Below are positions 8,318 through 62,526 of a stretch of 64,000 bases of DNA, in pieces; the stretch's first letter is position 1, and each line of letters opens with the position of its first letter. A program made the translations under genes and the position numbers. The notes under the pieces are model-generated. The model did not search any database, was not told the DNA's origin, and worked only from the letters and a program-made list of their open reading frames with translations. The stretch spans positions 1-64,000 of IMG/VR virus record IMGVR_UViG_3300049381_000011; one strand, given 5' to 3'. This DNA comes from a virus (taxonomy: Duplodnaviria; Caudoviricetes).

Positions 8318-8340
8318 GGGCGCAATTCCTTCCTGGCCAG

Positions 8341-8395
8341 CGAGGGTTCCAGCCCTCGGTAGATCCAAACTACCCGCACGACCATATATCGTCAA
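8341..8395 (-). promoter_or_regulatory. Phage-motif promoter (TTGACG-17-TAGTTT, 8367-8395) plus CUGGAA leader hairpin (8341-8358)
   Basis: CGAGGG-CTGGAA-CCCTCG followed by CCAGGAAGG. Confidence 0.7.
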
Positions 8396-8410
8396 CATGT
8401 TGTGTCGGCT

Positions 8411-8776
8411 TTACCGGGCGGCTTTTGCCAGGACCGCCCGGGCCAACCGGATTGCCGGCTGCAACGCCACCACCTCAGGCGTCATCTGCGGATGCGACCA
8501 CAGCGGCACCTCGTGCCCGTCGACGTGGAGATGCTGCCCCGCCTCATACGTCAGCAGCTGCGCGACGAGCTCGGCGACCACCGGATCCCACAGCGGAATG
8601 TGCTCGGCGTCCTCCGGTCGGTAGACCGCCTCGGCAACCGTCCCCTCCGGACCATGAACGATGAAGCTGCCCTCATGCTCCTGAACCCACGGACCGGGGG
8701 TCGCCGCCGCGCCAACCGTCCGGATGTACGCGGCCGCGTCCAGGAGCTCCTGCGCCGGCGTGATCTGCTCAGCCAT
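8411..8776 (-). CDS. Hypothetical protein (ATPGPW / Ead-like motif)
   Basis: AAATPGPW...DAEHIPLWDP motif common in actinophage early genes; TGATG coupling. Confidence 0.65.
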   Translation of the reverse strand: MAEQITPAQELLDAAAYIRTVGAAATPGPWVQEHEGSFIVHGPEGTVAEAVYRPEDAEHIPLWDPVVAELVAQLLTYEAGQHLHVDGHEVPLWSHPQMTPEVVALQPAIRLARAVLAKAAR

Positions 8777-9063
8777 CAGCGCGTCCCAGGCCTGCGTGGA
8801 AACTGATCGGCGGACAGCCGATGCCGGTCCCGGGCGATGTACGCGCAGAACTCGAGCGCATGGTCGACCCCCGTGAACCACCTGCTGCCACCTTTATGGT
8901 CGGCCAGGTGCTTTTCGATCTCGGACGCGATCCGCTCCCGGACCAGCGCCTCACCCAGCTCAGCGCTACGCACCCGGAACCGCAGCACCAGGAACGTGGC
9001 CAGCAACCCGGTCGCGGCGAGCAGCACCAGCACCGGCAGCAGGGCGACCAGCACGTCGATCAC
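8776..9063 (-). CDS. Membrane-anchored hypothetical protein
   Basis: N-terminal TM segment; C-terminus resembles that of 52394-52717. Confidence 0.6.
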   Translation of the reverse strand: MIDVLVALLPVLVLLAATGLLATFLVLRFRVRSAELGEALVRERIASEIEKHLADHKGGSRWFTGVDHALEFCAYIARDRHRLSADQFPRRPGTR

Positions 9064-9593
9064 TGAGCGCCTCCCTCAGCGAGTGCTTTCGCGGCCTGTA
9101 CGAGCGCGCCGCGGATGCCAGCCTTGGTGCGGCTGGTGACGCTCGGATACAGGCGTTTGCGTCCACGGACCTCGTCTGCGCACTTGCGGCGTTCCGCGGC
9201 CCGTTCGGCGACGGCGATCATCGGGGTCGCGATGCGCAGCAGGTCGCGAGCAGCGGCCCTGTACAGGTCGCGGTATTCGTCGCCGGCGTCGTCCCAGCTG
9301 GGCCGGGCCGGGTCGTGGCCCTGTTCCATCTGCTCGATCCGGCGGCCGACGGCGTCGACGACGTCCGGGTCGACACCGGCCGGGAGCACGTTGAGGGACT
9401 CCAGAATGCTGGCCAGCACGTCGGGGAGATCCGCGCGCCGCATACCGCCACCGAACTGCAGCGTCGCTTTCAGCTCGTCCGGCCGGCCGGCGTCTGGTTT
9501 CATCTCGATCAGCAGGTAGGGGTCCATGCCGAGAACCGGCTGCAGCAGCCGCAACTCGGTCGTTGCCGGGTCCTGGCCTGCGCCGCTACTCAC
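9060..9593 (-). CDS. Hypothetical protein
   Basis: Translationally coupled in the operon. Confidence 0.6.
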   Translation of the reverse strand: MSSGAGQDPATTELRLLQPVLGMDPYLLIEMKPDAGRPDELKATLQFGGGMRRADLPDVLASILESLNVLPAGVDPDVVDAVGRRIEQMEQGHDPARPSWDDAGDEYRDLYRAAARDLLRIATPMIAVAERAAERRKCADEVRGRKRLYPSVTSRTKAGIRGALVQAAKALAEGGAQ

Positions 9594-10162
9594 AGCGCAC
9601 CAACAGTGGCGTCAGCGGCGGCCGCGTCGGCGTCGGTTCGGGCGGCTTTGCGCAGCATGACAGCCTGCAGGACTGCCGTGTGGACGTTGTGGCTCAGCAC
9701 GTCGAGGGGCAGCGCGCCGTGCTGGTCCGGTAGCGGTTCCATCAGCACGACGGCGGCTGGGTGCTCGTCGTCGGCCCAGTCGAGGGCATGTGCGGCGCAG
9801 ACCTGGATCGCCTGGCGGGGGGTGAATCGGCCGGCGTCGCGGACCATGGACGCGTGCGTGATCCCGTTCGGGGCGATCCACTGTTGCCGGGTAGGGGACC
9901 AGGCCAGCCAATCGCGCTGGTTGGGCAGGTGGTGGCCGTCGGCGACCATCTGCTGCCACAGCGCCTCCACCGTCCAGAATGGTGCCCGCTGAGCTGGGGG
10001 GAGGATTCCGGCGACGTCCTGGTTCGTCATGTCGGGCCGGTAGCGGCACTCGCCGGCGTCGTGGCCGAGCGGACCGCCGGTCAGGTCGCCGCAGATGGCG
10101 CAGTGAGGGTTGCGGCGACCGAAGGTCATCGGACGCAGCTCGGTGTGGTTCAGGTCTGGCAT
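9590..10162 (-). CDS. Hypothetical protein with N-terminal CxxC..H..C
   Basis: GAGGAG SD; coupled downstream. Confidence 0.6.
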   Translation of the reverse strand: MPDLNHTELRPMTFGRRNPHCAICGDLTGGPLGHDAGECRYRPDMTNQDVAGILPPAQRAPFWTVEALWQQMVADGHHLPNQRDWLAWSPTRQQWIAPNGITHASMVRDAGRFTPRQAIQVCAAHALDWADDEHPAAVVLMEPLPDQHGALPLDVLSHNVHTAVLQAVMLRKAARTDADAAAADATVGAL

Positions 10163-10250
10163 TGCTGGGTTCTCCTCATCGGCGGATGTGGGCTGAAACA
10201 GGTGTGGGCCGCCGGCGGTTGCCGGCGGCCCGTCACGTGCTGGTCGGCGG

Positions 10251-10673
10251 TCATGCGTTCGCGAGCTCGGCGAACAGGTCCAGCTGGACCGGTGCTGGTG
10301 GCGGGGAGAGCAGGGCGCATACCGCGAAGTGCAGCCGCAGGTCGTTCCACCGCTGCTGTTCGTCGACGGCGGCGAACGCGGCCCGGAGCTCGTCGACGCG
10401 TTCCTGCGTGATCCCGGGCCGGACCATGTCCCACACCTGGGACCAGGTCACCAGGCCGGGATAGGTGCGTACCGGGTGCGGATATTCGTCGTAGCGCAGC
10501 CCGTCGTCGGTCGCCCAGCTCCGATCGGGGTGGTTGACGATCTCGATCAGTCGGGCGCGGAGCTCCGGGACGTCGCGGGGGTTCCGGGCTGTGCTGACCA
10601 GCGCGAGCATCCCTTCTGCGCCGAGGCTGCCACGGACCATGACAGGCCGGTTGACGGGTTTCGGGTCGCTCAT
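10251..10673 (-). CDS. Hypothetical protein with C-terminal QLDLF clamp-binding-like motif
   Basis: Ends PAPVQLDLFAELANA. Confidence 0.6.
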   Translation of the reverse strand: MSDPKPVNRPVMVRGSLGAEGMLALVSTARNPRDVPELRARLIEIVNHPDRSWATDDGLRYDEYPHPVRTYPGLVTWSQVWDMVRPGITQERVDELRAAFAAVDEQQRWNDLRLHFAVCALLSPPPAPVQLDLFAELANA

Positions 10674-11308
10674 GCCGACCAGTGCCGGACGTCGCCGTAC
10701 TTGGCCGTCTTGGTGTAGATCCGGCCGTTACCGGAGGGGGTGGCGGTGAACACGTCGACGCTGCTTTTCGCGAGCTGGACCGCGACGCCGACCCGGTACT
10801 GGCCGGCGCTGTGGACCGCGACCAGGTCGCCGACCTTGACCGTCGTCGACGTCGTCACGGGCAGCGCGACGAAGTCGGGGTATCGCATCGAGCGGATGCT
10901 GGCGAGGACCAGCGGCGTGTACTGCTCCAGCAGCGCGAGTTTGCGCAGTGTTCGGCGTGCTGCTGACCGGGCGCTGTTGACGGATGTGCACGGGTCGCTG
11001 AGTGGGGTGCTGGTCGGGGTGAAACCCGACTCGTAGCCGGCTCGTTCGCCGGCCTTGTGGTACGGGCTGGCGTGCAGGTAGAAGTCGCTGTGCGCCTGCC
11101 CGGTCGTGTAGCCGCCTGCCCGGTAGGCGCGGCAGGTCTCGGCGATGTTCTCGACGGGCTTGTCGCCGAAGTGTTTGATCGACCAGAACCGCAGCTGGAC
11201 GATGTCGATGTCCACGCCGTCGACGTGTTCGCGGACGACGTTGATGGGTGGGCCGACGTGGTGGACCCGGTTGCCTCGGGCGTCTGCGTCGATCACGGTT
11301 TGGGTCAC
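10670..11308 (-). CDS. Hypothetical protein with C-terminal KOW/SH3-like domain
   Basis: GTG 11308 after CUGGAA hairpin and CCAGGGAG. Confidence 0.6.
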   Translation of the reverse strand: MTQTVIDADARGNRVHHVGPPINVVREHVDGVDIDIVQLRFWSIKHFGDKPVENIAETCRAYRAGGYTTGQAHSDFYLHASPYHKAGERAGYESGFTPTSTPLSDPCTSVNSARSAARRTLRKLALLEQYTPLVLASIRSMRYPDFVALPVTTSTTVKVGDLVAVHSAGQYRVGVAVQLAKSSVDVFTATPSGNGRIYTKTAKYGDVRHWSA

Positions 11309-11325
11309 TTTTGCTCCCTGGTGAG

Positions 11326-11382
11326 TGGCATTTCCAGATGCCAGGTTGTGTGTCAGCGTAACGACTCGGCATAAATCGTGTA
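11326..11382 (-). promoter_or_regulatory. Degenerate phage-motif promoter plus CUGGAA hairpin (11326-11343)
   Basis: TGGCAT-CTGGAA-ATGCCA; ACGATTTA motif with TACGCT -10 (16-bp spacer). Confidence 0.55.
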
Positions 11383-11461
11383 TATAACTGATCGGATTAC
11401 CGGATTTGAGGCGAGTAGGCCGCACCCTCCGGGATTCGGGGGGTGCGGCCAGCCGTATGGG

Positions 11462-12076
11462 CTACTCGCCGTGGCAGCAGCCCTGGCAGCAGTCCGTGTC
11501 GTGGGCCAGGCCGCAGCCCGCGCCCCGGTTCGGGGTGGCGTCACGGCCGCAGTCGTGCGCGCAGCCGGCCGGGGTGGGGTCGGCGCAGAACTGGTGGGCG
11601 GTCTCGCAGCCGGCCTGGATGCCGGGGGTGCCGTAGGTGGTGCAGTTGTCGCAGGCGTCGACGTGGCCGAGCGAGCCGCCGGCGAGGGTGATGAGCAGCC
11701 CGCCGCACGTGCACCGGTATTCGGTCTGGTCCGCGCCTGCGATGCGGGTGTGGATGGCCAGCCACCGCTGGCCGCGCTCACGGATCACCGCGCTGTCGAC
11801 GTCGTGTGTGGCCTTGAGTGCTGCGGCGACGAGCGTGGGCAGCAGCCACGACGCGGTCGCGACGCGGGCGCGGGCCAGGCTGCTGTGGACGTCGGAGATC
11901 TGCCCGGTGGGCAGGTAGCGGACCGCCCAGCTGGTGGAGGAGTCCTCCAGCCGCTCGTAGAGCCACAGGCCGCACTGGCTGGTCGCGGCTGCGATGGTCG
12001 TACCGGAGCCGGGGACGCCGTTGCGCACGGCGGGCATGCGGTGGAGCTTGACTGCGGTGGCGGTCGTCTGGGGCAT
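11462..12076 (-). CDS. Cys/His-rich hypothetical protein
   Basis: C-terminal third has about a dozen Cys; first gene of the leftward operon. Confidence 0.65.
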   Translation of the reverse strand: MPQTTATAVKLHRMPAVRNGVPGSGTTIAAATSQCGLWLYERLEDSSTSWAVRYLPTGQISDVHSSLARARVATASWLLPTLVAAALKATHDVDSAVIRERGQRWLAIHTRIAGADQTEYRCTCGGLLITLAGGSLGHVDACDNCTTYGTPGIQAGCETAHQFCADPTPAGCAHDCGRDATPNRGAGCGLAHDTDCCQGCCHGE

Positions 12077-12093
12077 CGTGTCCTCCTGGTCTG

Positions 12094-12253
12094 GCAGGCG
12101 GTTCCAGCCGCCTGCATGTCTCAGACTAGCCGTATGGCGTTAAATCGTCAATAACATCTACCCGTATTTTCGGTCAGTGTTTGCCACCCAGCCAGCGCGA
12201 ACACGCGCAGCCGTGAACAACTTATTGACGATTTACCGTCGCATGGGTAGCTT
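12094..12253. promoter_or_regulatory. Divergent pair of phage-motif promoters (minus 12123-12151, plus 12225-12253) and CUGGAA hairpin (minus 12094-12115)
   Basis: TTGACG-17-TAGTCT on minus, TTGACG-17-TAGCTT on plus, both with TTATTGACGATTTA. Confidence 0.8.
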
Positions 12254-12279
12254 GATGACAACGACGAGGAGGAGGCGAC

Positions 12280-12597
12280 ATGGAACATGAGCCCTGGTGC
12301 CTGCAGGAGCACGACGAGTCCGAGGACTGCGGCGACCACATGAGCTGGTGCGACCGCGAACACAGGATGGACGCCGAATGCGAGCGCCAGGTCGAGGACG
12401 GCGACGACCTGTTCGCCCCCGCGCTGATCGGCGTCCCCGGCGACTACTGCCGGGTCTCGATCAGCGACGACTACAACGCCGAGGACCTGCCCCGCCTCAT
12501 CGCCCAGCTGCAGGAGCTGCAGCCGCTCGTGATCCGCTCCACCTGGGCCGAGGTCAACAACAACGCCGGACCGGTACCGCCGGGCTGGGAGGGCTGA
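12280..12597 (+). CDS. Acidic Cys/His hypothetical protein
   Basis: GGAGGAGG SD; duplicated HxxWCxxEHxxxxxC. Confidence 0.65.
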   Translation: MEHEPWCLQEHDESEDCGDHMSWCDREHRMDAECERQVEDGDDLFAPALIGVPGDYCRVSISDDYNAEDLPRLIAQLQELQPLVIRSTWAEVNNNAGPVPPGWEG

Positions 12598-12600
12598 CCT

Positions 12601-13137
12601 GTGGCCGTGTACGTCGACGACTACCGGGCACCGGCAGAGGTCAACGGGATCTCCGCCCGCTGGTCGCATCTGCTGGCCGACGGCGACGCCGAGCTGGTCG
12701 CGTTCGGTCGCCGGCTCGGTCTGCGGCCCGGCTGGCTGCAACACGCCGGTCAGCCGACCTGCCATTTCGACGTCACCGACGGCATGCGGGAGAAGGCGAT
12801 CCGGGCCGGCGCGCAGCCGATCACCGTCCGCGACAGCGGTGAGATCGTCCGCAGGCGTCGAGCGGCCCTGCGGACAGCCGCGCAGGAGACCGGCATGCCA
12901 GCGCCAGCGCCGCCGGCCCGCAGGGTGGCGTACAACCCCACTCTGCGACGGCACTCCTGGCTCAAACTGCGCGAGCACGTGTCACGCTGCCGCTGGTGCG
13001 AGATCGAGACCGTCAACCAGCCGGACGAGGAGTCCCGGTCGTGGTTCAAGACCTGGACGTACCCGTCCGGCGGGCACGGCACGACGTACGGCGGCGTGAA
13101 GCTCCCGACGTGCAGTGGACCCCTGGAAGCGCGCTGA
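12601..13137 (+). CDS. DUF4031 family protein with C-terminal Zn ribbon
   Basis: MAVYVDD...WSHLLAD..ELVAFGRRLGLRPGWLQ...HFDVT...REKAIRAGA signature. Confidence 0.8.
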   Translation: MAVYVDDYRAPAEVNGISARWSHLLADGDAELVAFGRRLGLRPGWLQHAGQPTCHFDVTDGMREKAIRAGAQPITVRDSGEIVRRRRAALRTAAQETGMPAPAPPARRVAYNPTLRRHSWLKLREHVSRCRWCEIETVNQPDEESRSWFKTWTYPSGGHGTTYGGVKLPTCSGPLEAR

Positions 13138-13459
13138 TGGCCGACTGGTACGCCGCACGCCCGCGACCGGCGACGGCCGACGAGCGGCGCGCAAGCCGGG
13201 CGCAGCTGTACGCCGACCTGCTCGCCGCGCTACCCAGACCTGGCGCGCGTCCGATGCCGACCGTGTGCTGGCCGAGCGGTTCGCGATGGACTCCTACGAC
13301 TGGTCGAGCAAGTTGTGGCCGGCGCTGGACCTGCTGGTCCGGCACGGCCTGGTCGAGCGGCTCGCTGTCGAGGATCAGCGGGAGCGCAGCTGGCGCAAGA
13401 CGCAGGAGGGTGCGGCGTGGTCTGGGACGCCGTTTGCGCTGCTCAACACCCTCAAATAA
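13137..13459 (+). pseudogene. Frameshifted winged-helix-like gene
   Basis: ATG 13137 (TGATG coupling) reads MADWY...PMPT; the protein-like continuation RVLAERF...LWPALDLLVRHGLVERL is in another frame; one added base near 13260 would join them. Confidence 0.55.
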
Positions 13460-13475
13460 AAGCGTGCATATGTTA

Positions 13476-13548
13476 TTGACGATTTAACTTTGGGCGGGTA
13501 ACGTATCAGGTACAGGCGCTGGAAACGCCCACCAACCCGACCAGGAGG
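13476..13548 (+). promoter_or_regulatory. Phage-motif promoter (TTGACG-17-TAACGT) plus CUGGAA(A) hairpin and CCAGGAGG
   Basis: CATATGTTATTGACGATTTA; GGCG-CTGGAAA-CGCC at 13515-13529. Confidence 0.75.
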
Positions 13549-13553
13549 ACATC

Positions 13554-13901
13554 ATGTCGAAGGCCATGCTCACCGACGCGCAGTTCGAGACCATCGCCAG
13601 CGTCCTGGCCCGGCACGGCGGGAGCGCGCTCCGGTTCGCCGACACCAAGACCGTCATGACCCTCACCGCGCTGAACCGCAAGGGCATGGCGACGATCGTC
13701 TGGGGTGTCGTCGACGGCCGGCGCGGCATCCACTCGGCGGAGATCACCGGCTACGGCCGGACCATCCACCGCGACGAGACCACCCGCCGCGCGGCGGTCG
13801 CCAAGCGCGACGCCAGCCTCGCCGGCGAGGCCACCCGTCGCGCGATCGACGTGCAGCTGGGCCTGGCCCCCGCATCGTGCGGATACGCCTACAGCGCGTG
13901 A
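13554..13901 (+). CDS. Small winged-helix-like hypothetical protein
   Basis: LTDAQ...TLTALNRKGM...EITGYG pattern; strong SD. Confidence 0.65.
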   Translation: MSKAMLTDAQFETIASVLARHGGSALRFADTKTVMTLTALNRKGMATIVWGVVDGRRGIHSAEITGYGRTIHRDETTRRAAVAKRDASLAGEATRRAIDVQLGLAPASCGYAYSA

Positions 13902-13912
13902 CCATCACCGCG

Positions 13913-13947
13913 ACGTCCCCGGCCGGTTGATCCCGCCGGGGACGTCG
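13913..13947 (+). terminator. Hairpin after 13554-13901
   Basis: GACGTCCCCGGC...GCCGGGGACGTC. Confidence 0.6.
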
Positions 13948-14021
13948 TCTGTCACCCGATGTGCCAACCCGCCGAGAAACCCCGCATATGTTATTGAATT
14001 CGCCTGGCCGGGGGTAATGTC

Positions 14022-14605
14022 GCTGACGCGCGGACCTGTGGTTTCGCGCTCAGCCGGTCGGAGACTGACTCTGCGGCCGCACGCAAGACCAGACCGGGTT
14101 GACCCCGGAATGGACAGACACGGACACACACCGTTAGCTAGCCGGACCGTTGCTCCCGGCGGCATCGGTGTGCCCGCAAGGTGAGACCCAGGGTGAGGCC
14201 AGCCCAAAAGTGGGGCCGCCCGCGTTGGACGCGCGGACGACCCCGTTCCTCCCCCTGGCCCCGCGACCGTGTGGCGGTCGCGGGTGGGCGGTGGCGTGCT
14301 GAGGGTTGACCGTGCCCCGTGCATCCCTCAGATGCGCCGCCGTCCCCCTTGCGAGTGATGGATCTTGGCCGTCTGGGCGTTCGGCGAACGCGACGGTCGG
14401 TTCTGAAGCCGTGAAAGGGTCGAAGCGCAGCGCAAGCGAGCGCCTGCACCGGGCTGTTTTCCCAGTACGCGGGCCTAAACCCTGCGCGATGTGCGGATGT
14501 TACCGCCGGGAGTGTTACCCCGGGTCACGCAGCGCAGGAAGATTTCCCCCGACAAGCGGATGGTGCACTAATTTGTGACCGTTCGGGCCGTTTTCGCTAA
14601 CGGCG
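14022..14605 (+). ncRNA. Putative large structured noncoding RNA (~590 nt)
   Basis: No credible ORF; preceded by CATATGTTATTGAAT...TAATGT promoter variant (about 13985-14020); more than a dozen consecutive hairpins; ends just before the next promoter. Confidence 0.6.
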
Positions 14606-14626
14606 CGAATCCACATGCGCATGTTA

Positions 14627-14655
14627 TTGACGATTTATAAGCACATGGCTAGTCT
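14627..14655 (+). promoter_or_regulatory. Phage-motif promoter (TTGACG-17-TAGTCT)
   Basis: CATGTTATTGACGATTTA. Confidence 0.75.
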
Positions 14656-14687
14656 GGACATAACACCAGTTTGCTGAGGGAGATCCC

Positions 14688-14969: not shown

Positions 14970-15079
14970 GCGGGACCGGCCAAACGCTATTTGGCCGGTC
15001 CCGGCAGGACATCTTGCCACGGACCGAACCGCCGTGGGCACCCAGCCGGGGTGCCCACGGCACCACCCGAAAGGCGAAC

Positions 15080-43097: not shown

Positions 43098-43167
43098 TTG
43101 ACGATTTACCGCTTTCCGGTTAATGTAAAGACACCCGGGCGCTGGAACGCCCACCACGACCAGGAGG
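43098..43167 (+). promoter_or_regulatory. Phage-motif promoter (TTGACG-17-TAATGT) plus CUGGAA hairpin (43137-43152) and CCAGGAGG
   Basis: Direct inspection. Confidence 0.75.
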
Positions 43168-43173
43168 AACCCC

Positions 43174-43527
43174 ATGGCACGTGAACTCAGCCCCCTCGCC
43201 CAGGCCGCGAAGACCGTCCGGGCGCAGATCAAGGTCGACCGGGCCGCAGGCAAGTACGAAGGCCTGCCCGCCGAGGTGAAGATCTCCGTACGGTCCGAGA
43301 CCGCGAGCATGTACTCCAACCTGGCCATCGACCTGAGCGGCGTCCCCATCCAGTGGGGATGGGAGCACGGCGGCAAACCCGCGCCGGCGCTGAAGAAGAT
43401 CGCTGAGGCGCTCGCCGACCTGGGTCGCGAGCACGCACCCTCGCACTCCTGGGTGAGCGTCACCGAAGACGACGCGCTGAGCCTCGCCAGCCGCTACATG
43501 GAGGGATGGCAGCCCGGTCGGGACTGA
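43174..43527 (+). CDS. Hypothetical protein (moron)
   Basis: Own promoter, SD and downstream hairpin at 43532-43579. Confidence 0.7.
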   Translation: MARELSPLAQAAKTVRAQIKVDRAAGKYEGLPAEVKISVRSETASMYSNLAIDLSGVPIQWGWEHGGKPAPALKKIAEALADLGREHAPSHSWVSVTEDDALSLASRYMEGWQPGRD

Positions 43528-43662
43528 CCGTCACGTCAGGCGCCCTGGGCTGAACGTCTGGCCTGGGGCGCCTGACGTGTCAGCACTGGCCACGTTATTC
43601 CGATTTATCGCCAGACGGAAAGTGTGAGACTACATACAGCGTCCCACGTAAGGAGCAAAGCA

Positions 43663-44784
43663 ATGCCCGATCCATACATGCGAATTGATGACCTGTTCAG
43701 TCCGGCGCTGCTCGCCGCGTCACTCGCGACTGGTCACGTCCGTCAACAGCTCCACCCGACCGAACCCCTGGCGATCCTCAACTACACCGAGATCTGCCAG
43801 TACACGAACGTGTGGGACGAGGTGACCTTCGCCTGCCGTGGCCTGATCTTCAACACCCAGACCCGCCAGATCGTCGCCCGCCCGTTCCCGAAGTTCTTCA
43901 ACCACGGCCAGACCGGCGCCCCCGACATTCCGCTGAACGCTGCCGTCGAGGTGACCGACAAGGCCGACGGCAGCATGGGCATCCTGTACGAGCTGCCCTC
44001 CGGCGGCCACGCGATCGCGACCCGGGGCTCGTTCACCTCCGACCAGGCGCTACACGCGACCGAGGTGTGGGACACCCGCTACATCGACCAAGTCACGCCG
44101 CTGCCCGGCACCACCGCACTATTCGAGATCATCTACCCGGCGAACCGGATCGTTGTCGACTACCGCGACGTCGACGACCTGGTCCTGCTCGGCGGAGTAC
44201 AGATCGCCGACGGCATCAACCTGTCACCACAGATCATGCGAGCGGCGATCGGCTGGACCGGCCCGCTGATCGCCGTCATGCCCTACGCGACCCTCGCCGA
44301 GGCGCTCGCCGCCGAACCCCGCCCGAACAGCGAGGGCCTCGTCGTCACCTGGCCCGGCGGCGGCTGGTCACGGGTGAAGGTCAAGCAGGAGGACTACGTC
44401 CGGCTGCACCGCATCGTCACCGGCCTGACAGCCCGGGTCATCTGGGAGCACCTGGCCCAGGGCCTGCACCTGCTGGAGCTGATCGCCGGCCTGCCCGACG
44501 AGTTTCACGCCTGGGCCCGCGCCGTCGCCGACTCGCTGGAGTCCGAGGTCCAGGACCACCACGAACGGATCACGAAGGAATACGCGGGGATCATCGACGA
44601 GATGCGGTACGCCGAAACGCTCGAGCGCCGTGACTTCGCCGACCGGGTCGCTGACCACCCCGACAAGTGGGCGTTGTTCTTCCTCCTGGACCAGCGTGAC
44701 ATCCGCCCTGGTCTGTGGCAGATGGTCCGTCCGGCGGCGGGGTGGACACCGTCAGGGCGCACGTACAGCGACGCCGTAGCCTGA
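43663..44784 (+). CDS. T4 Rnl1-like RNA ligase
   Basis: ARPFPKFFN, motif I DKADGS, ATRGSFTSDQA, FEII, SEGLVV, RVKVKQEDY. Confidence 0.92.
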   Translation: MPDPYMRIDDLFSPALLAASLATGHVRQQLHPTEPLAILNYTEICQYTNVWDEVTFACRGLIFNTQTRQIVARPFPKFFNHGQTGAPDIPLNAAVEVTDKADGSMGILYELPSGGHAIATRGSFTSDQALHATEVWDTRYIDQVTPLPGTTALFEIIYPANRIVVDYRDVDDLVLLGGVQIADGINLSPQIMRAAIGWTGPLIAVMPYATLAEALAAEPRPNSEGLVVTWPGGGWSRVKVKQEDYVRLHRIVTGLTARVIWEHLAQGLHLLELIAGLPDEFHAWARAVADSLESEVQDHHERITKEYAGIIDEMRYAETLERRDFADRVADHPDKWALFFLLDQRDIRPGLWQMVRPAAGWTPSGRTYSDAVA

Positions 44785-47223: not shown

Positions 47224-47541
47224 TCAGTTGACGATCGTCCAGTCGTCGGCGAGGAGGTCCGAGATCGTCGGCACCCACGGGCAGAACGAGCCGTCGGCGG
47301 TGGCCAGCATCAGGTACGGGCGGAACACGCAGACGGTGCCCTCCGGGATACCGGTCGCCTGGGCGGTGTTCCCGTTGATCGCGATCCCGTCCGGGTAGCC
47401 CTTCTGCAGCACCACCCACTGACCGGGGCCGTTCCAGCTGGCCCGGGACACTTTGGACCCTGACTTCAGCTCGGCGAGCGCGTACGAGAAGTCGAGCTCG
47501 GCTGGCCGCTTGTTGGCTGGGTCGGGAAAGCTGTGGTCCAT
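47224..47541 (-). CDS. DUF2829 / Tad2-like anti-Thoeris protein
   Basis: DFSYALAELKSGSKVSRASWNG...PYLMLATADGSFCPWVPTISDLLADDW signature. Confidence 0.85.
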   Translation of the reverse strand: MDHSFPDPANKRPAELDFSYALAELKSGSKVSRASWNGPGQWVVLQKGYPDGIAINGNTAQATGIPEGTVCVFRPYLMLATADGSFCPWVPTISDLLADDWTIVN

Positions 47542-48304: not shown

Positions 48305-48520
48305 ATGATTTCCGCTGGAACGGTAAGTCTGATCACCCCGGCCAGGAACGCACCCGCGGCCGCTCACGGCAGCTGCGCCCACTGCATCTGCAACCCGCAG
48401 GCCAACCGTGGCCACCACTGCCACCAGGCCGGCTGCACCGCCTGCACCATCGGCTGCCCCGACGCCGGCGACGACGCCGGCTGCATCCGCGCACACGAAA
48501 CGGTGACCATCCCGGCCTGA
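48305..48520 (+). CDS. Leaderless Cys/His-rich peptide
   Basis: TTGACA-18-TATGAT promoter (48269-48298) places the TSS at about the ATG. Confidence 0.5.
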   Translation: MISAGTVSLITPARNAPAAAHGSCAHCICNPQANRGHHCHQAGCTACTIGCPDAGDDAGCIRAHETVTIPA

Positions 48521-56216: not shown

Positions 56217-56629
56217 CGGGCGCACAGCACGATGTCGGCGGACCGTTCGGCGACGACCCGCGCTGCCCGACGGCGAACCCAGCTGAAAAACAGCCGATTG
56301 CCGATGTAGCCGGCGGCCTGGGCGCCGGCGGCGCCGGCGAACAGCCAACTGTGCCAGCCGGCGACGTCGAGCGCGCCGACGGTCAGCGCGCTGCACGTCA
56401 GCACGTTGATCCCGAATCCTGTGAAGCCGAGGATCCAGCCGGCCCGACCGGGGGACGCGAGCGCCTGCACCACAGCGAACTGGAGGTGCGGTGCGGCGGC
56501 GGTAATGGCCAGACGTGCGTCGGCGGCCGCGTGCCGCATGTCGGTCGTCGGTCGTTCGAGGAGCACGAGCTCAGCCGCGTCAAACGCGGCCTGGCTGATC
56601 GGGGCGAGAAGTTGCGTGATGGGTCGCAT
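56213..56629 (-). CDS. Membrane protein
   Basis: GGAGG SD; 2 TM. Confidence 0.55.
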   Translation of the reverse strand: MRPITQLLAPISQAAFDAAELVLLERPTTDMRHAAADARLAITAAAPHLQFAVVQALASPGRAGWILGFTGFGINVLTCSALTVGALDVAGWHSWLFAGAAGAQAAGYIGNRLFFSWVRRRAARVVAERSADIVLCAR

Positions 56630-56668
56630 GGTTCCTCCAAGGTGCGGGCTCGGCGGACGTACAGAGGT

Positions 56669-56884
56669 CTACTTGTCTTCGGCGGGGGGTCTGGCCAGGC
56701 CGTGGGTGGCGATCGCGACGCCGAGGTCGCGCCACCCTTCCGCGACGGCCAGGAGCCGGCTCGCTTCGCCGATGCTCTCGCAGCTCTCGGCCTGGGCGAG
56801 CAGGACGGCTGCCCGTTCGGCGCAGGTGTGCCGGTCGACTGCCTGCGACTGTGGGACGGCGACGGGTGTCTCAGACGTCGTCAT
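56669..56884 (-). CDS. Small hypothetical protein
   Basis: ATGA overlap with terminase stop. Confidence 0.5.
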   Translation of the reverse strand: MTTSETPVAVPQSQAVDRHTCAERAAVLLAQAESCESIGEASRLLAVAEGWRDLGVAIATHGLARPPAEDK

Positions 56885-58197
56885 AGGATGATCTTGTCCT
56901 TGATGTAGGGCCGCCAAAGCGACTCGGTGGTGTGGACGCCATAGCGGAGCGCGTCGCAGCTGTGGTCATCGGCCTTGATCGGGACGTCTTCGCCCTTCTG
57001 GGCCTTCTCGTCATCCCAGCTGTAGCCCGGGATTTCGTCGATCAGGCCGCGGCACGACTCGTGGACCAGCAGCCGGAAGTTCGCGAGCAGCGTCGCGACG
57101 TTCCGGATGCCGTCCAGGACGTTGTTGCGTGCTTTCGTCGGCGTGAGGTCGTCCTCGAACAGCTGGACGATGAACGACCTGGCGGACGGGTCGACGCAGA
57201 TGTACTCCGGGTCGATCCCCCGCTGCGGGACGAGTAGCCCTGTCGCCGCATCCGGTGTGCCGGTGCCGGGGATCTCGTGGTTGGCCAGCCAGCGCTGGAT
57301 CGACACGCTGTACTGCGCGTCGGTTTTGCTCTTGTGCGCCTGCTTGGCGTCGTAGCGGTATTCGCTGGTCGCGTACAGGCGCTGGTCGACGCCCATGCCG
57401 AGCGAGATCGCCGAGAACGGGTTGGAGGTGCCGTAGTCGACGCCGACGGACAGCCAACGGTCCATGATCGGGAGCCGGTTGACGACGTGGCGGGACTCGT
57501 CCCACATGTCGTAGATCGCACCCTCAGCGGCGACCCAGTGCCCGAGGACGAAGCGGCGGAAGTAGAGGCCCACGAATTGGGCTTTGATCGCTGCTTTGAA
57601 TTCCGGGTCGAGGAACGGGTTGTCGTCCAGGGTGAAGTGCCAGTGCCGCAGCCGGGTGTCCTGCGGCCGCAGGATGAAGTCTTTGCGCAGCCAGTGCGAC
57701 GGGTTGTCGGGGTTGGTGGTGGCGAACAGCATCGCCCCGCGGACGCTCATGCGGCCCAGGAGCTGGGTCCAGAACTCGCGCGGTACGAGGGTCGCCTCGT
57801 CGACGTAGGCGCCGGCCACCGTCATGCCTCGCAGGCGGGTTTCCGCCCGGGCGTCGTTAGCTCCGATGATGTCGACGACCCTGCCGAAGATCCACGCCTG
57901 GTTAGAGCCGGGCGTGTAGTGGATCTCGTCGGCGATCGGTCCGAACAGCGCCGGGTCCTGCAGCACGGAGAACAGGTTCCGGTTGATCGTGTCCTTGGTG
58001 CGGCCGACCATGACCAGGCGGCCGCCGAGCGGCGCGTTACGGACGTACAGCACCCAGCGCAGCAGCGACGCGACCGTCTTGCCGGCACGGATCGCGCCGG
58101 TCCACACGTTGACGCGGGCCCGCGCCTGCCGGATCGACGCGAGTTGTGCCAGTGACAGCGGCGGCGCGGCGCGGAGCTCGTCGTAGGCGACGGTCAT
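56881..58197 (-). CDS. terL: Terminase large subunit (PBSX-like)
   Basis: GAIRAGKT, YVDEATL, TTNPDNPSHWL, GVDYGTSNP, DDHSCDALRY. Confidence 0.95.
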   Translation of the reverse strand: MTVAYDELRAAPPLSLAQLASIRQARARVNVWTGAIRAGKTVASLLRWVLYVRNAPLGGRLVMVGRTKDTINRNLFSVLQDPALFGPIADEIHYTPGSNQAWIFGRVVDIIGANDARAETRLRGMTVAGAYVDEATLVPREFWTQLLGRMSVRGAMLFATTNPDNPSHWLRKDFILRPQDTRLRHWHFTLDDNPFLDPEFKAAIKAQFVGLYFRRFVLGHWVAAEGAIYDMWDESRHVVNRLPIMDRWLSVGVDYGTSNPFSAISLGMGVDQRLYATSEYRYDAKQAHKSKTDAQYSVSIQRWLANHEIPGTGTPDAATGLLVPQRGIDPEYICVDPSARSFIVQLFEDDLTPTKARNNVLDGIRNVATLLANFRLLVHESCRGLIDEIPGYSWDDEKAQKGEDVPIKADDHSCDALRYGVHTTESLWRPYIKDKIIL

Positions 58198-58775
58198 GAC
58201 GGGCCGTCGCCGGCGTCGACGTCGCCGGCGGCCGGGGTGTCGGTGGCGATCGACGGGAGTGGTTCGGGGTATCCGTCGTCGTATCCGTCGCCCTGGTCGA
58301 CGTCGAGGGCGAGCATCTGCGCGAGCCGGTCGACGAGCGAGACACCGGAGTTGCCCTCGTCGGGTTTCGTGTCGTACTTCAGCAGGTTGATGTGCTGGGT
58401 GACGGCGATCCCGACGGCGGCCATGCCGTGTTTGACCTCGGACAGGGGCGGCTCACCGAGCCGCATCGTGATCACTTCGTTTTTGACCGGGATGTGGACG
58501 ACGTACGCCGACGTGCACCGCGCGGCGACATGCTCGGCGAGGTCGAGGAGCTGCTGCGCGAACGCGGCCCGGCGGGCGGCGAGGTCGACGACCCGCGCCT
58601 CGGTGGCCGCTGCGGTCGCTGACCGGTTGAACGCATCCGGTTTGATCTTCTTCGCCAGTCCGGACACGGTGCCACGGCCTACGCCGTGGTCGCGTGCGAT
58701 CTGGTTGCGTGGCTTGCCGGCCTCGATGTCGGCGATGATCGCCGCCCGGACCTCTTCGGACAGAGGGGCACCCAC
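58194..58775 (-). CDS. terS: Terminase small subunit (HTH)
   Basis: GKPRNQIARDHGVGRGTVS; coupled to terL. Confidence 0.75.
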   Translation of the reverse strand: MGAPLSEEVRAAIIADIEAGKPRNQIARDHGVGRGTVSGLAKKIKPDAFNRSATAAATEARVVDLAARRAAFAQQLLDLAEHVAARCTSAYVVHIPVKNEVITMRLGEPPLSEVKHGMAAVGIAVTQHINLLKYDTKPDEGNSGVSLVDRLAQMLALDVDQGDGYDDGYPEPLPSIATDTPAAGDVDAGDGPS

Positions 58776-59039
58776 GACGGTTCACACCCCTTGACGGCGA
58801 GCACGGGGCACGGCAGCCGTCAACGTGATGTGAGTGGCGACCCGGTGCCCGACCGGGACAGCCCCGGATTCAGTCCGGGTGAGACGCGGCAGCGCCCGGG
58901 GTGCCGATGATTGGGCACACTCCGGGCGCTGCGTAAGGCGTTGGATGGATCCTGACGGGTTGGCGGGTGGTCGTCAAGCGTGTCGCGGTTTGGTGTGTTT
59001 TCTGGTCCACCAAAACCAGACATAATCGTGCACATGTTA

Positions 59040-59112
59040 TTGACGATTTAACGGGTTGGGGATAGAATTGATCTACACCCGGGGTGCTGGAACACCCCAC
59101 CTGACCAGGGAG
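59040..59112 (+). promoter_or_regulatory. Phage-motif promoter (TTGACG-17-TAGAAT) plus CUGGAA hairpin (59081-59098)
   Basis: GGGGTG-CTGGAA-CACCCC then CCAGGGAG. Confidence 0.75.
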
Positions 59113-59119
59113 AACACCT

Positions 59120-59368
59120 GTGGATATCAAGACTCAGTGGACGATTCAGACGAGCGAGACGTTCTCCGCGCTGATCCCGCTGGCCGAAATCGCCGAGCAG
59201 CTGCAGGAGACCGAGGAGGAGACTTTGCGCCTGGTGGCGGCCGGCGAGGTCGAGGCGCACGACCGTTGGTCCGAAACCGTGCTCAGCGGCCGCGAGACCG
59301 AGGACATCTCCGTCTACTTCGCCGTTGACGAGCGCTCCATCGACGAGATGGGGCCGCACCTGTTCTGA
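59120..59368 (+). CDS. Acidic small protein
   Basis: Own promoter/SD; downstream hairpin at about 59376-59418. Confidence 0.65.
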   Translation: MDIKTQWTIQTSETFSALIPLAEIAEQLQETEEETLRLVAAGEVEAHDRWSETVLSGRETEDISVYFAVDERSIDEMGPHLF

Positions 59369-59437
59369 TGATCGGTCGGGGGTTCGGGCAGGTCATGCGG
59401 CTTGCCCGAACCCCCCGAATATATCCCGCACATGTTA

Positions 59438-59466
59438 TTGACGATTTAACTCTGGGCGGTTACTAT
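59438..59466 (+). promoter_or_regulatory. Phage-motif promoter (TTGACG-17-TACTAT)
   Basis: CACATGTTATTGACGATTTA. Confidence 0.75.
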
Positions 59467-59497
59467 AGACAAAGAAGCCACCCCCGAAGGAGCCCCC

Positions 59498-59749
59498 ATG
59501 CTGGACCTGGACCTGGCCACACAGATCAAGAAGCTCCACACCGCCACCTACGGCATGGTCACCCCCGCCCGGACGGCAACGCCCCTCATCGACGACGACG
59601 CGATCACCGCCGCGCACATGCTCGTCAACGGCAAGCCGGACGAGGCCCGCGAACTGTTCGGCAGCAACGGACGCCTGGGCGGCGCGCTCCTGCGCCAGCT
59701 GCAGAACCTCCAGTACCTCCAGGCCCACGGCGAGCACATCCAAGCCTGA
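59498..59749 (+). CDS. Hypothetical protein
   Basis: AAGGAG SD. Confidence 0.65.
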   Translation: MLDLDLATQIKKLHTATYGMVTPARTATPLIDDDAITAAHMLVNGKPDEARELFGSNGRLGGALLRQLQNLQYLQAHGEHIQA

Positions 59750-59811
59750 CCGGACCAGGGGCGGGCACTGCCCGCCCCTCCCGCACCGAACGCGCAGGGG
59801 AGGAACCGACA

Positions 59812-60252
59812 ATGTTCGAGCAGTTCACCACTGAAGTCATCCCCCACTGGCACGACTTCGGCTCCGGCCGCACATGCGCGAGCTGCCAGGCCACCGATTT
59901 CAGCTGGGGCACATACCTGCTCGGCTCAGAAGCGGAGACGACTGTCGCCTGCTACCCGTGCGGCGCCCGGTACCGCGACGAATACGACTGGCCACTGATC
60001 CAGATCGACGTCACCCCCGAAGCCGAGCAGACGCTGTACGAGGCGATCAGCGTCCAAGCTGCCGAGCTCAACCGGCTCGCGAACGCGACCTACGGCATGG
60101 ACGGCCGCGACGAGACGACGATCGAAGCGGCGCTGCAGTGGATGGCCGGCGAGCACGCCCTGGCCGTCGCGATGGTCGGCACCCTCCGCGCTGACCTGCT
60201 AGCCGCGATCGTCGACGAGATGGACAACCTCAACTGGCTCAGCAACAGCTGA
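59812..60252 (+). CDS. Zn-ribbon hypothetical protein
   Basis: GGAGG SD; CASC...CYPC. Confidence 0.65.
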   Translation: MFEQFTTEVIPHWHDFGSGRTCASCQATDFSWGTYLLGSEAETTVACYPCGARYRDEYDWPLIQIDVTPEAEQTLYEAISVQAAELNRLANATYGMDGRDETTIEAALQWMAGEHALAVAMVGTLRADLLAAIVDEMDNLNWLSNS

Positions 60253-60304
60253 CCGCGATCCGCCCGGGCGCTGGAACGCCCACCCCCCGACCAGGAGGCA
60301 ACAC

Positions 60305-60823
60305 GTGATCACAGCAACGACGACCATCGGCCAGCAGCTCGCCGGCGAGATCGTCACCATCGGCCGGAGCCTGTACCCGGACGTCGCCGAGCGCGTCGAC
60401 CGGGCGTTCGGAACGGTCGGGGTCGCGCTCGCCCGCCTGGTCGAGGCGGGGCACGTCGTCGACGTCACCGAGTCGGGAGTGGCCAGCATGCGAGCGGCCG
60501 TCCACCACCTGCACCAGGAGGTCGGCGAACACGCGCTCGGCGCCGGCTGTCTTCTGTGCGGCCCTGCCGGTCAGCTGGACGTCGACGTTGCCGGAACGCG
60601 TATGGCACCTGACCTGATCTCGACCGAGCTGGAGCGGTACGAAGGCCGGCTGGAGTCGATCCACATCATCGCGATGCGGAAGGGGCTGTCGGAGTGGGAG
60701 GTCGTCGAGGTGTATGTGCACGGTGACGTGTCCGGTCCGGAGACTGTCTGGACAGCGTGGTCGACGGCGGCGATCGCGCAGCGCGTCCAGTGCGCTGTCG
60801 ACCGTGGGTTCGCTGTGGTGTGA
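60305..60823 (+). CDS. Hypothetical protein
   Basis: CUGGAA hairpin at 60266-60281 plus CCAGGAGG upstream. Confidence 0.65.
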   Translation: MITATTTIGQQLAGEIVTIGRSLYPDVAERVDRAFGTVGVALARLVEAGHVVDVTESGVASMRAAVHHLHQEVGEHALGAGCLLCGPAGQLDVDVAGTRMAPDLISTELERYEGRLESIHIIAMRKGLSEWEVVEVYVHGDVSGPETVWTAWSTAAIAQRVQCAVDRGFAVV

Positions 60824-60894
60824 CCTCGGCAGGAGAGCAGTAACGTCATCAACCACACGAGGCGCTGGAACGCCCACTACCCGAGGAGACCAGG

Positions 60895-61437
60895 ATGTCG
60901 ACCCCCACCGCTGGCCAGCAGCTCGCCGCGACGGTTCACGATGGATCGCCCTACTGCATCGGTCACCATGACGCGGATGGCGAATGCGTCGAAGCCTCTC
61001 CCTGCGACCCCCGCTGCCTGGGCCATCACGGCAAGCCTGTGCCCTGCACCCCGTGCCCCCAGTCGCGGTGCGTCGAACACGACACTGCCGGCTGCGCAGA
61101 CCTGTGCCAAAGGATCTACTGCACCGGCCACGAAATGGACGACGACGAGGACCTGTGCTGCATCATCGCCAAGCACGCGCCCTGGTGCCCGCCGGCATGC
61201 CGCGCCCACGGGACCGACGGCGAGCACGAGCTGGACCTCGGCAACGACGTCGTCATCTACAGCGAGCTGCTCGAACCCAGTACATACATGTGCGTCTCAC
61301 TCGACGACAGCGCCCACGATGTCGCCGACGCCGACGCGCTGATCGCCAAGACCGAAGCGATCCTGGCTGCGATGCGCACAGCCAGGATGATCCTCGCGGT
61401 GGAGGCAGCCAGCGCGGCCGCGCTGCAGCTCCCCTGA
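60895..61437 (+). CDS. Cys/His-repeat metal-binding protein
   Basis: Repeated CxxHxxxxxC units; CUGGAA hairpin at 60861-60874 upstream. Confidence 0.65.
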   Translation: MSTPTAGQQLAATVHDGSPYCIGHHDADGECVEASPCDPRCLGHHGKPVPCTPCPQSRCVEHDTAGCADLCQRIYCTGHEMDDDEDLCCIIAKHAPWCPPACRAHGTDGEHELDLGNDVVIYSELLEPSTYMCVSLDDSAHDVADADALIAKTEAILAAMRTARMILAVEAASAAALQLP

Positions 61438-61475
61438 ACGCCACCGAGGCGCGAAACGCTCGATACCGTCGTCGC

Positions 61476-61871
61476 ATGCGACAAGAAGCTGTTGCGACGT
61501 CGACGCCGGCGACGCCCACACCCGGACCGCCGTCCCTCAGCACCTATGACGACAGCGCTGTCCTTTGGGGCGCGTGGTCGTACTCCCCGACGCTGAGCCA
61601 TTACCCGGAAGCCTGCCCGAATGCGCGCTGTGGCTACACCGGGCCGTCGCTCGTGACTGTCGGAGTTGTCCAACCGCTGCTCAATGAGGTTTTCATCGGT
61701 GAGGTGCGGGCGGACGGCGTCACGCAGTTGGTGGAGGTTCTTCCTCTGGCTCGTCTGATCGCGTTCCGGTGTGAGGTGTGCGCGAACCAGCGGATCTACG
61801 ACCGGTGGGGCGGCGCTGGCGGGGAGTTCGTCGAGATCGACGGTGAGGGTACGCAGGAGACCCTGTTCTGA
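61476..61871 (+). CDS. Zn-ribbon protein ending QETLF
   Basis: CPNARC...CEVC; start uncertain. Confidence 0.5.
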   Translation: MRQEAVATSTPATPTPGPPSLSTYDDSAVLWGAWSYSPTLSHYPEACPNARCGYTGPSLVTVGVVQPLLNEVFIGEVRADGVTQLVEVLPLARLIAFRCEVCANQRIYDRWGGAGGEFVEIDGEGTQETLF

Positions 61872-61917
61872 CCTGCGTCGGACGTATCATCTCAGCCCGT
61901 AAAACGGGCACATGTTA

Positions 61918-61988
61918 TTGACGATTTACCGGCATACGTGTAGCGTGAACATCACCGGGCACTGGAGAGCCCCACCACGACCAGGGAG
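61918..61988 (+). promoter_or_regulatory. Phage-motif promoter (TTGACG-17-TAGCGT) plus hairpin GGGC-ACTGGAGA-GCCC and CCAGGGAG
   Basis: Direct inspection. Confidence 0.75.
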
Positions 61989-61993
61989 AGAAC

Positions 61994-62407
61994 ATGAACG
62001 ACATCGCCAACGCGGACCAGGCCACCAACCCGCTCGCAGCCCACCAGGCCGCCGCAACACACGCCGTACGGCTCGCCGCGCTGCTCCCGGCAGACGAGAT
62101 CCGCGGGCACTTCTACCGGCACGACGGCTCGCCGACCAACCGGTGGGCGCTCGTCACCCTGTACGCCAACAGCTGCGAGCACGCCGACCTGGCCGCGACG
62201 CTCAACCCGTCGCCGTGGGCCATGAAGATGCTGAACTGGGCGGTCCGCGCGCTGGCCGGAATGGTGGAGCGGTCCGGGGCGGTCGACCTGGCGCACATCG
62301 ACGCGCTGGCCGAGGACGCCGCTCGCGAAGAGGCGATGCTCGCGGCCGTCACGCCCGATCGGCCCCTTACTGGCATCTTCTCGACGCCGTGGCTTCCGAA
62401 CGTCTGA
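61994..62407 (+). CDS. Hypothetical protein
   Basis: Own promoter/SD. Confidence 0.65.
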   Translation: MNDIANADQATNPLAAHQAAATHAVRLAALLPADEIRGHFYRHDGSPTNRWALVTLYANSCEHADLAATLNPSPWAMKMLNWAVRALAGMVERSGAVDLAHIDALAEDAAREEAMLAAVTPDRPLTGIFSTPWLPNV

Positions 62408-62526
62408 TCCGCAGGCCGAAACACATCGCCGGGAGGCAGACGTGTCGGACGGTGGATCCGTCCCCGATGAGGCCATCGGTCCGTACCGCCAGGGCGCTGG
62501 AACGCCCACCCGACCAGGAGGAACGC

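Follow-up and report, generated by a model that had tools for sequence, protein, structure and literature searches.

The closest described system is the start-associated sequence (SAS), with its extended form (ESAS), of Cluster K mycobacteriophages (Pope et al. 2011, PMC3203893); SAS/ESAS-like motifs also occur in Cluster EF Microbacterium phages (PMC7302621). The SAS has a 13-bp consensus, GGGATAGGAGCCC, or GGGAAAGGACCCC in the EF form, and lies 3-8 nt before start codons (PMC3203893, PMC7302621). The ESAS, an imperfect inverted repeat of 17 bp, departs from its consensus in ways that do not keep RNA pairing, and DNA-binding proteins are favoured by the authors as its readers (PMC3203893). 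A second module of related build is the promoter-early stem-loop (PeSL) cassette of the T4-type phages RB49 and phi1 (Arbiol et al. 2010, PMC2839356). Here, we describe a recurrent 5' leader in the first 64 kb (the window) of the 95,941-bp IMG/VR virus record IMGVR_UViG_3300049381_000011. The leader consists of a hairpin with the loop CUGGAA and a downstream box that carries the Shine-Dalgarno sequence. As judged from its sequence, it is most likely a portable translation-initiation module, a translation-control site shared by twelve unrelated genes.

The leader resembles SAS/ESAS in its actinophage setting, its copy number (~10-19 per genome), a conserved box with a Shine-Dalgarno core near start codons, a second element upstream in many copies, a single orientation, and its association mostly with non-structural genes of different families. 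In contrast, the box found here, GACCAGGAGG or more generally (G)ACCAGG[A/G]AG, is unrelated to GGGATAGGAGCCC or GGGAAAGGACCCC, and the 4-8 bp stem varies freely with compensatory changes around a conserved 6-nt loop, whereas the ESAS repeat shows no RNA covariation. With PeSL cassettes it shares a sigma-70-type early promoter, a stem-loop and a Shine-Dalgarno sequence before orphan genes in variable regions. The copies may also resemble PeSL in acting as crossover points of cassette gain and loss, as suggested by two joints of low depth and with short sides. However, the stem-loops of PeSL are terminators without a conserved loop, and their position relative to the promoter varies, while the hairpin described here is always part of the transcript, keeps a fixed place between transcript start and ribosome site, has an invariant loop and no T-run, and also exists without a promoter. 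The sequence thus appears to be unlike described motifs, although its kind, a start-associated repeated leader, is already known.

The record has a G+C content of 68% and a CheckV completeness of 93%. Genes for terminase, portal, major head protein and tape measure lie in the window. In its portal protein, the phage shares 40-56% identity with Streptomyces phages (Galactica, Hiyaa), ~90-kb Streptomyces plasmids and other uncultivated records. The DNA looks like that of a soil metagenome. No near-identical DNA was found among INPHARED phages or in the other collections searched, and an attempt to assign the host via the lysin gave no match among 301 genomes.

A covariance model (CM) was built from the 12 aligned copies and run over the whole record with filters off. 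It returned 12 matches at 33-52 bits, the next match being at 17 bits. Eleven of them lie inside the window, and the minus strand carries the twelfth at 95867-95852. A strict pattern, requiring a CTGGAA loop, a stem of at least 4 bp and CCAGG within 22 nt, occurred 10 times, compared with a mean of 0.03 in 30 Markov shuffles. All 12 copies have the orientation of the next gene, as had been noticed in a preliminary description of this DNA. That description counted about 11 copies; its ten main sites are all present where it placed them, while a variant that it included at ~48307-48329 had to be dropped and a minus-strand copy of 33 bits at 6342-6327 had been overlooked. The copies in the window, named below after the first base of their hairpins, are the following.

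6239..6342, minus strand: promoterless copy whose leader is long; hairpin 6342-6327 (GGGCA/CUGGAA/UGCCC), two more small hairpins, then the GACCAGGAAG box at ~6286-6277; ATG 6239 of the YqaJ-like exonuclease gene (5256-6239, 327 aa, YqaJ Pfam match); CM 33.3 bits.
8315..8395, minus strand: promoter and leader; -35 TTGACG 8395-8390, -10 TAGTTT 8372-8367; hairpin 8358-8341 (CGAGGG/CUGGAA/CCCUCG), box GGCCAGGAAG; ATG 8317 of a 177-aa orphan gene (no Pfam/PHROG family); CM 41.6 bits.
11306..11383, minus strand: promoter and leader; degenerate -35 ATACAC 11383-11378, -10 TACGCT 11360-11355; hairpin 11343-11326 (UGGCAU/CUGGAA/AUGCCA), box CACCAGGGAG; GTG 11308 of a 212-aa orphan gene; CM 41.2 bits.
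12074..12151, minus strand: promoter and leader; -35 TTGACG 12151-12146, -10 TAGTCT 12128-12123; hairpin 12115-12094 with an 8-bp stem (GCAGGCGG/CCGCCUGC), box GACCAGGAGG; ATG 12076 of a 204-aa Cys-rich orphan gene; CM 49.8 bits.
13476..13556, plus strand: promoter and leader; -35 TTGACG 13476-13481, -10 TAACGT 13499-13504; hairpin 13515-13529 (GGCG/CUGGAAA/CGCC, 7-nt loop), box GACCAGGAGG; ATG 13554 of a 115-aa basic protein; CM 38.3 bits.
43098..43176, plus strand: promoter and leader; -35 43098-43103, -10 TAATGT 43121-43126; hairpin 43137-43152 (GGGCG/CUGGAA/CGCCC), box GACCAGGAGG; ATG 43174 of a 117-aa orphan; CM 52 bits.
59040..59122, plus strand: promoter and leader; -35 59040-59045, -10 TAGAAT 59063-59068, the promoter being recovered also by an independent consensus scan with 10/12 matches; hairpin 59081-59098 (GGGGUG/CUGGAA/CACCCC), box GACCAGGGAG; GTG 59120 of an 82-aa acidic orphan gene; CM 50.4 bits.
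60266..60307, plus strand: operon-internal copy without promoter; hairpin 60266-60281 (GGGCG/CUGGAA/CGCCC), box GACCAGGAGG; GTG 60305 of a 172-aa orphan gene; CM 49.9 bits.
60861..60897, plus strand: operon-internal copy with a TAACGT relic 14 nt upstream that lacks a -35 element; hairpin 60861-60874 (GGCG/CUGGAA/CGCC), GAGGAG, then ACCAGG immediately 5' of ATG 60895 of a 180-aa Cys/His-rich orphan gene; CM 34.2 bits.
61918..61996, plus strand: promoter and leader; -35 61918-61923, -10 TAGCGT 61941-61946; hairpin 61957-61972 (GGGC/ACUGGAGA/GCCC, 8-nt loop), box GACCAGGGAG; ATG 61994 of a 137-aa orphan gene; CM 45.1 bits.
62492..62529, plus strand: operon-internal copy without promoter; hairpin 62492-62507 (GGGCG/CUGGAA/CGCCC), box GACCAGGAGG; ATG 62527 of a 186-aa orphan gene; CM 47.5 bits.

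The compensatory stems, the invariant loop, the co-orientation with the genes and the fixed place before the start codon support the view that the leader acts as a folded RNA. Five of the six stem pairs change on both sides, a level that none of 500 shuffles reached, and the signal vanishes when the partner column is shifted by 1-3 positions. The RNA structure proposed earlier from variable but paired stems around an invariant loop is therefore borne out. The stems are G+C-rich and range from 4 to 8 bp, and the same loop is carried by at least seven different ones (GGGCG, GGGGUG, CGAGGG, UGGCAU, GCAGGCGG, GCGCC, GGGCA). Ten of the 12 copies have the loop CUGGAA, in which GGA occupies positions 3-5; the remaining two carry variants, one of 7 nt and one of 8 nt. 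As the stems covary while the loop is fixed, the loop should have a sequence-specific partner. The hairpin is present in the minimum-energy fold of 10 of the 12 leaders and is the only stable structure in the leader. The remainder folds no more strongly than shuffled sequences (z between -1.7 and +1.5); hence, the ribosome site is open, with no masking in cis.

A G-poor linker of 4-15 nt connects the hairpin to the (G)ACCAGG[A/G]AG box with its Shine-Dalgarno sequence. The distance from box to start codon is 5-7 nt in nine copies and 11 nt in copy 8358, while in copy 60861 the box abuts the start codon. ACCAGG[AG]AG is found 12 times in the genome, 9 of these beside a hairpin, and the box constitutes the ribosome site in 11 of the 12 copies. 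Copy 6342 differs, with GACCAGGAAG located 42 nt past the hairpin and 37 nt before the ATG. Since this copy retains the box although it is not the ribosome site, the box appears to belong with the hairpin. The GGA of the loop and that of the box are separated by 17-26 nt in 11 copies and, in copy 6342, by 54 nt.

Eight copies are preceded by a conserved promoter, ATGTTATTGACGATTTA (-35 TTGACG), with a spacer of exactly 17 nt and a -10 element TAnnnT. In all eight, the first stem base follows 7-12 nt after the -10 element, from which we infer a transcript start 0-5 nt before the hairpin. Promoters are missing from copies 60266 and 62492, which confirms an earlier observation, and likewise from 60861 and 6342. 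Conversely, promoters of the same class without a CUGGAA hairpin were found at 12219 (+), 14621 (+), 59432 (+) and 7004 (-). With four copies lacking a promoter and four promoters lacking the hairpin, the leader is a separate module. The term 'phage-wide' control used in the preliminary description is overstated: 12 leaders are marked, and these four promoters of the same class do without the element. The promoter has an extended form at the following sites of the window.

12141-12157, minus strand: extended promoter site.
12219-12235, plus strand: extended promoter site.
13470-13486, plus strand: extended promoter site.
14621-14637, plus strand: extended promoter site.
59034-59050, plus strand: extended promoter site.
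59432-59448, plus strand: extended promoter site.
61912-61928, plus strand: extended promoter site.
6988-7004, minus strand: extended promoter site.

Looser forms precede copies 8358, 11343 and 43137, and a further site is located at 95910 (-), beyond the window. The conservation around the -35 element exceeds the needs of a sigma factor, which suggests an overlapping operator. A scan of viral contigs with the promoter 16-mer gave only single chance matches in unrelated contigs. Upstream of several extended promoter copies, a small hairpin with a TAAA-type loop is seen, e.g. at 61895-61909. In the minus-strand stretch 6946-7004, the promoter of this class has a different 5' hairpin (GGCACGCC/GGCGUGCC) behind it, and after that GAGGUGAU; 5' hairpins in leaders seem to be a general preference of this phage. 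No T-run follows the hairpins, and a terminator scan calls none of them on the sense strand.

The genes behind the leaders encode proteins of 82-212 aa and, in addition, the 327-aa YqaJ-like exonuclease. No paralogy was found among these proteins. Since no two of them are related, copying of a gene family together with its leader does not explain the repeats. Except for the exonuclease, no Pfam or PHROG family was assigned to them, and for the 172-aa protein, the one searched against a large protein collection, only the protein itself was retrieved. The 115-aa protein (ATG 13554) has a winged-helix-like predicted fold with PadR/ArsR/MarR-like neighbours in the ESM Atlas, a lead only towards a possible winged-helix DNA binder.

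How could such a leader act? Our preferred reading, held tentatively, is that loop and box form the two-part operator of a trans-acting RNA-binding regulator of the GGA type. From a transcript beginning 0-5 nt before it in eight copies, the hairpin would display the invariant CUGGAA hexaloop, offering the first GGA there, and the second would be provided by the ribosome-binding site. A regulator bridging both GGA sites would block or tune ribosome access, and the early/accessory gene set could thereby be run as one post-transcriptional regulon. The regulator may be CsrA, provided that the host encodes it, or a protein of phage or host that is so far unrecognised; its existence, identity and sign of action are what we infer from this arrangement.

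The geometry is that of known CsrA targets, in which GGA mostly lies in six-nucleotide hairpin loops and two sites are bridged at distances of 10-63 nt, with an optimum of ~18 nt (PMC7652899). In the leaders, GGA occupies positions 3-5 of a hexaloop, a second GGA overlies the Shine-Dalgarno sequence, and the spacing of 17-26 nt falls within this range and close to its optimum. By inspection, the box ACCAGGAGG agrees at 7 of 9 positions with ACARGGAUG, the CsrA core obtained by SELEX (PMC7652899). CsrA genes are not rare in the class, as 60 of the 301 sampled genomes have one (55 of 296 without the unpublished G050, G014, G037, G043 and G270). They are likewise present in G263 and G088, both of which carry portal relatives of the phage. 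The CsrA-style double GGA considered in the preliminary description therefore agrees with the published geometry, but the phage has no CsrA gene. We regard the likeness to CsrA/RsmA as a resemblance in working principle and not as membership.

Several points weigh against a GGA-type regulator. A six-frame search did not find CsrA in the phage, and no RNA-binding Pfam family was detected in the motif-bearing genes or in 67 other phage ORFs, so that no partner was found. CsrA was also not found in G112, G391, G314, G036, G006 and G007. The two genomes with the closest portal proteins and the tested Streptomyces and Kitasatospora genomes have none. CsrA ligands have a conserved A before GGA, and their stems typically have four or fewer pairs (PMC7652899). 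By contrast, the loop has C-U ahead of its GGA, the A being found only in the box (CCA-GGA), and the stems, with 4-8 G+C-rich pairs, are longer and stronger. Moreover, GGA is inherent in any Shine-Dalgarno sequence, which makes the second site partly free, and a model of two half-sites leaves the invariant first C of CCAGG unaccounted for, whereas loop-box pairing explains it. Finally, the searches of viral, genome and metagenome sets and of portal relatives yielded no copy in another genome with which its conservation could be compared. The fuller version, in which a CsrA-style two-site GGA regulon works through the host CsrA or a new phage GGA-binding protein and the module doubles as a recombination joint, is possible but doubtful.

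With regard to an antisense or sponge RNA, no independent hairpin of note with a UUCCAG loop was found in the phage. Two UUCCAG-loop hairpins at ~67.4-67.7 kb were rejected; they lie within a coding region and are chance-like. The gene-free stretch 14022-14605 contains no anti-leader sequence and no excess of GGA.

The invariant C leads to the first alternative, a pseudoknot in cis, in which CUGG of the loop pairs with CCAG of the box to give a compact H-type knot directly before GGAGG, acting as an enhancer, a ribosome positioner or a stabiliser. The four pairs can form in 96% of the cells across the 12 copies, with a loop-box duplex energy of about -5.8 kcal/mol, and the G-poor linker keeps the box free for pairing. 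Both Cs of CCAGG are invariant, and copy 6342, with its box away from the ribosome site, is no exception. However, no pair changes on both sides: the loop/CCAG covariation that the preliminary description proposed to look for is entirely missing despite the high pairability, and conservation alone cannot separate pairing from two fixed protein sites. Pairing also stops at 4 bp, as the base ahead of CCAG is A or G and never the U that would match A5 of the loop. Neither the conserved AA of the loop nor the GA before the box is explained by pairing. The first base of the loop abuts the stem with no bridging nucleotide, which would be sterically unfavourable, and the partners of copy 6342 are separated by two other hairpins. 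In addition, a weak thirteenth copy reads CAGGG instead of CUGG. The sequences neither support nor refute the knot; we rank it second and consider it rather unlikely.

A precedent for such a knot is the translational operator of T4 gene 32, a single autoregulatory site in which an experimentally established pseudoknot lies upstream of an unstructured ribosome-site region. The leaders would be alike in that an open ribosome-binding region comes after a folded 5' element, but they comprise 12 sites on unrelated genes, and a knot is only possible.

The thirteenth copy is a degenerate leader at 86894-86847 (-) of the record, with 17 bits. It has the stem GGCGCG/CGCGCC and a 10-nt loop, UCAGGGAACC, in which GGA is kept and CUGG is lost, followed by ACCAGGAGG. 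Its ATG opens a 323-aa protein with a weak beta-lactamase-like match.

The ompA, aprE, SP82 and T7 gene 10 mRNAs are stabilised by 5' stem-loops in combination with a ribosome site. The hairpin and the strong ribosome site may likewise guard the mRNA from 5'-end-dependent RNases and, within operons, the hairpin could mark a cut after which all cistrons would begin with an identical, protected 5' end; the loop would then be the site of the processing enzyme. The position of the hairpin, 7-12 nt after the -10 hexamer and 0-5 nt from the likely start in all eight promoter-bearing copies, fits this explanation, as does its being the only stable structure in the leader. The different 5' hairpin behind the promoter at 7004 (-) would suit a general habit of this kind. 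Yet a stabiliser needs no set loop, and the loop is invariant over at least seven stems; a plain 5' stabiliser, one of the options raised earlier, fails on this point. The conserved ACCAGG box and its retention in copy 6342 are left unexplained as well. We therefore judge a stabiliser or processing mark to be unlikely.

A different role is suggested by natural variants. Contigs of four other soil runs cover parts of the 58-64 kb region at 80-100% likeness, and two joints were seen in them. A joint between the promoter at 59432-59459 and hairpin position 60267 occurs in runs X2 and X4, which belong to two studies; it removes 807 nt and passes through 17 letters that are identical to the -10 region of copy 13515. 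In run X2, 59052 is joined to 60855, just 5' of the 60861 hairpin, with 1802 nt removed, and 21 new letters at the joint supply a TAACGT -10 element at the correct 17-nt spacing. The joints have a depth of 2-4x with only 29-32 letters on the shorter side and reads placed at 80% likeness, and they need confirmation. They would imply that copies internal to the operon here are promoter-proximal in sister phages, and that the borders of cassettes are located within the module. Among the differences listed, those near copies lie in linkers or flanks (60285, 60876, 60880, 62510) and none in a loop or box. The region 59052-60855 is hyperplastic, the 807 or 1802 nt absent from related soil phages corresponding to the loss of one to several orphan genes.

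Being conserved, the module may have a secondary role as a crossover point for swapping gene cassettes between related phages. That it is mainly a PeSL-like recombination linker at the DNA level, the hairpin being at most a weak transcription attenuator, seems improbable. This explanation would draw on the joints 59459/60267 (two runs, two studies) and 59052/60855 in the soil contigs, on the orphan genes that the copies precede, and on the order of promoter, stem-loop and ribosome site, which matches PeSL (PMC2839356). A linker is, however, expected to consist of identical repeats, while the stems differ by compensatory changes around a fixed loop, indicating selection on a folded single strand. 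Without a T-run and downstream of their own promoters, the hairpins would also be poor intrinsic terminators, and the joints come from contigs of 2-4x depth at 80% likeness with 29-32 letters on the shorter side.

The last option, a nut/boxB-like loading site at which the nascent hairpin recruits an antitermination factor to RNA polymerase at each early promoter, is very improbable: a small hairpin with a sequence-specific loop does occur in the first 30 nt of eight early-type transcripts, and the motif-bearing gene 95830-95468 has an arginine-rich N-terminus, but the sites number 12, each of them linked to a ribosome site and at a constant distance from the start codon, one operon has three within 2.3 kb, ahead of consecutive genes, no boxA-like element and no N-like protein were seen, the arginine-rich protein continues with two hydrophobic segments and looks like a membrane protein, and the 6-nt loop is not GNRA-like, unlike the lambda nut site with its GNRA-like boxB pentaloop, boxA, N-like protein and few sites.

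The leader was also looked for in other DNA. Rfam gave no match over the whole window at the gathering score, and over 58950-62600 with E up to 10 it gave three unrelated chance matches only. The search with the covariance model, Rfam and phage sequences for an already described motif, as suggested in the preliminary description, thus returned no match. The strict pattern CTGGAACGCCC-N(3-15)-GACCAGGAGG was found in no stretch of the viral contigs, 40 times in genome contigs and 26 times in metagenome contigs, all of them single and in a coding or non-hairpin context. With a loose pattern, none of the matches listed from viral contigs exceeded 21.5 bits in the model. The best score was 23 bits in five full virus records of portal relatives (40-56% identity) and 28 bits in five bacterial genomes with related prophages, with single matches only. 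No over-represented loop precedes the ribosome sites of three portal relatives. So far, the element appears to be private to this phage lineage.

SAS/ESAS were described in 2011, and no mechanism is known for them; the evidence on ESAS spoke against an RNA structure. The CUGGAA leader is a cleaner case, with a compensatory stem, an invariant loop, a fixed box and independence from the promoter, and the reader of the leaders is testable. If this reader were CsrA or a functional analogue, the phage would couple a gene set to a global RNA regulator of its host in Actinomycetota; tapping the host CsrA would link these genes to the physiological or motility state of the host. The cassette joints further suggest that the leaders shape the movement of orphan genes between phages.

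The variant at 48307..48329 (+), CCG/CUGGAA/CGG, is not a copy. It has a 3-bp stem, scores 10 bits with an E of 2.5 and sits within the coding sequence of a leaderless, Cys/His-rich small ORF (ATG 48305 to TGA 48520). The ATG of this ORF follows 6 nt past a TATGAT -10 element, with TTGACA 17 nt further upstream, so that 48305-48520 (+) is a probable leaderless small gene for a 71-aa Cys/His-rich peptide.

Copy 43137 opens a two-gene island on the plus strand (43174-44784), consisting of the 117-aa orphan and an Rnl1-like RNA ligase at 43624-44784 (PHROG 562, E 2e-62). The island is flanked by minor-head-protein and portal genes (PHROG matches) on the minus strand. Pfam PF11195 (E 4e-24) identifies a Tad2-like domain (Thoeris anti-defence 2) in the gene at 47230-47493 (-). 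One match each to the WhiB, DUF4031, HIT and Phd/YefM antitoxin families came from the 67 ORFs scanned. Outside the window, at 93270-93745 of the record, ~15 copies of the palindrome CGACCGGTCG lie within 480 bp, eight of them as the 12-mer CCGACCGGTCGG. This looks like an iteron, partition or transfer-locus array, and it is located a few kb from an FtsK/SpoIIIE-like gene (87347-89617).

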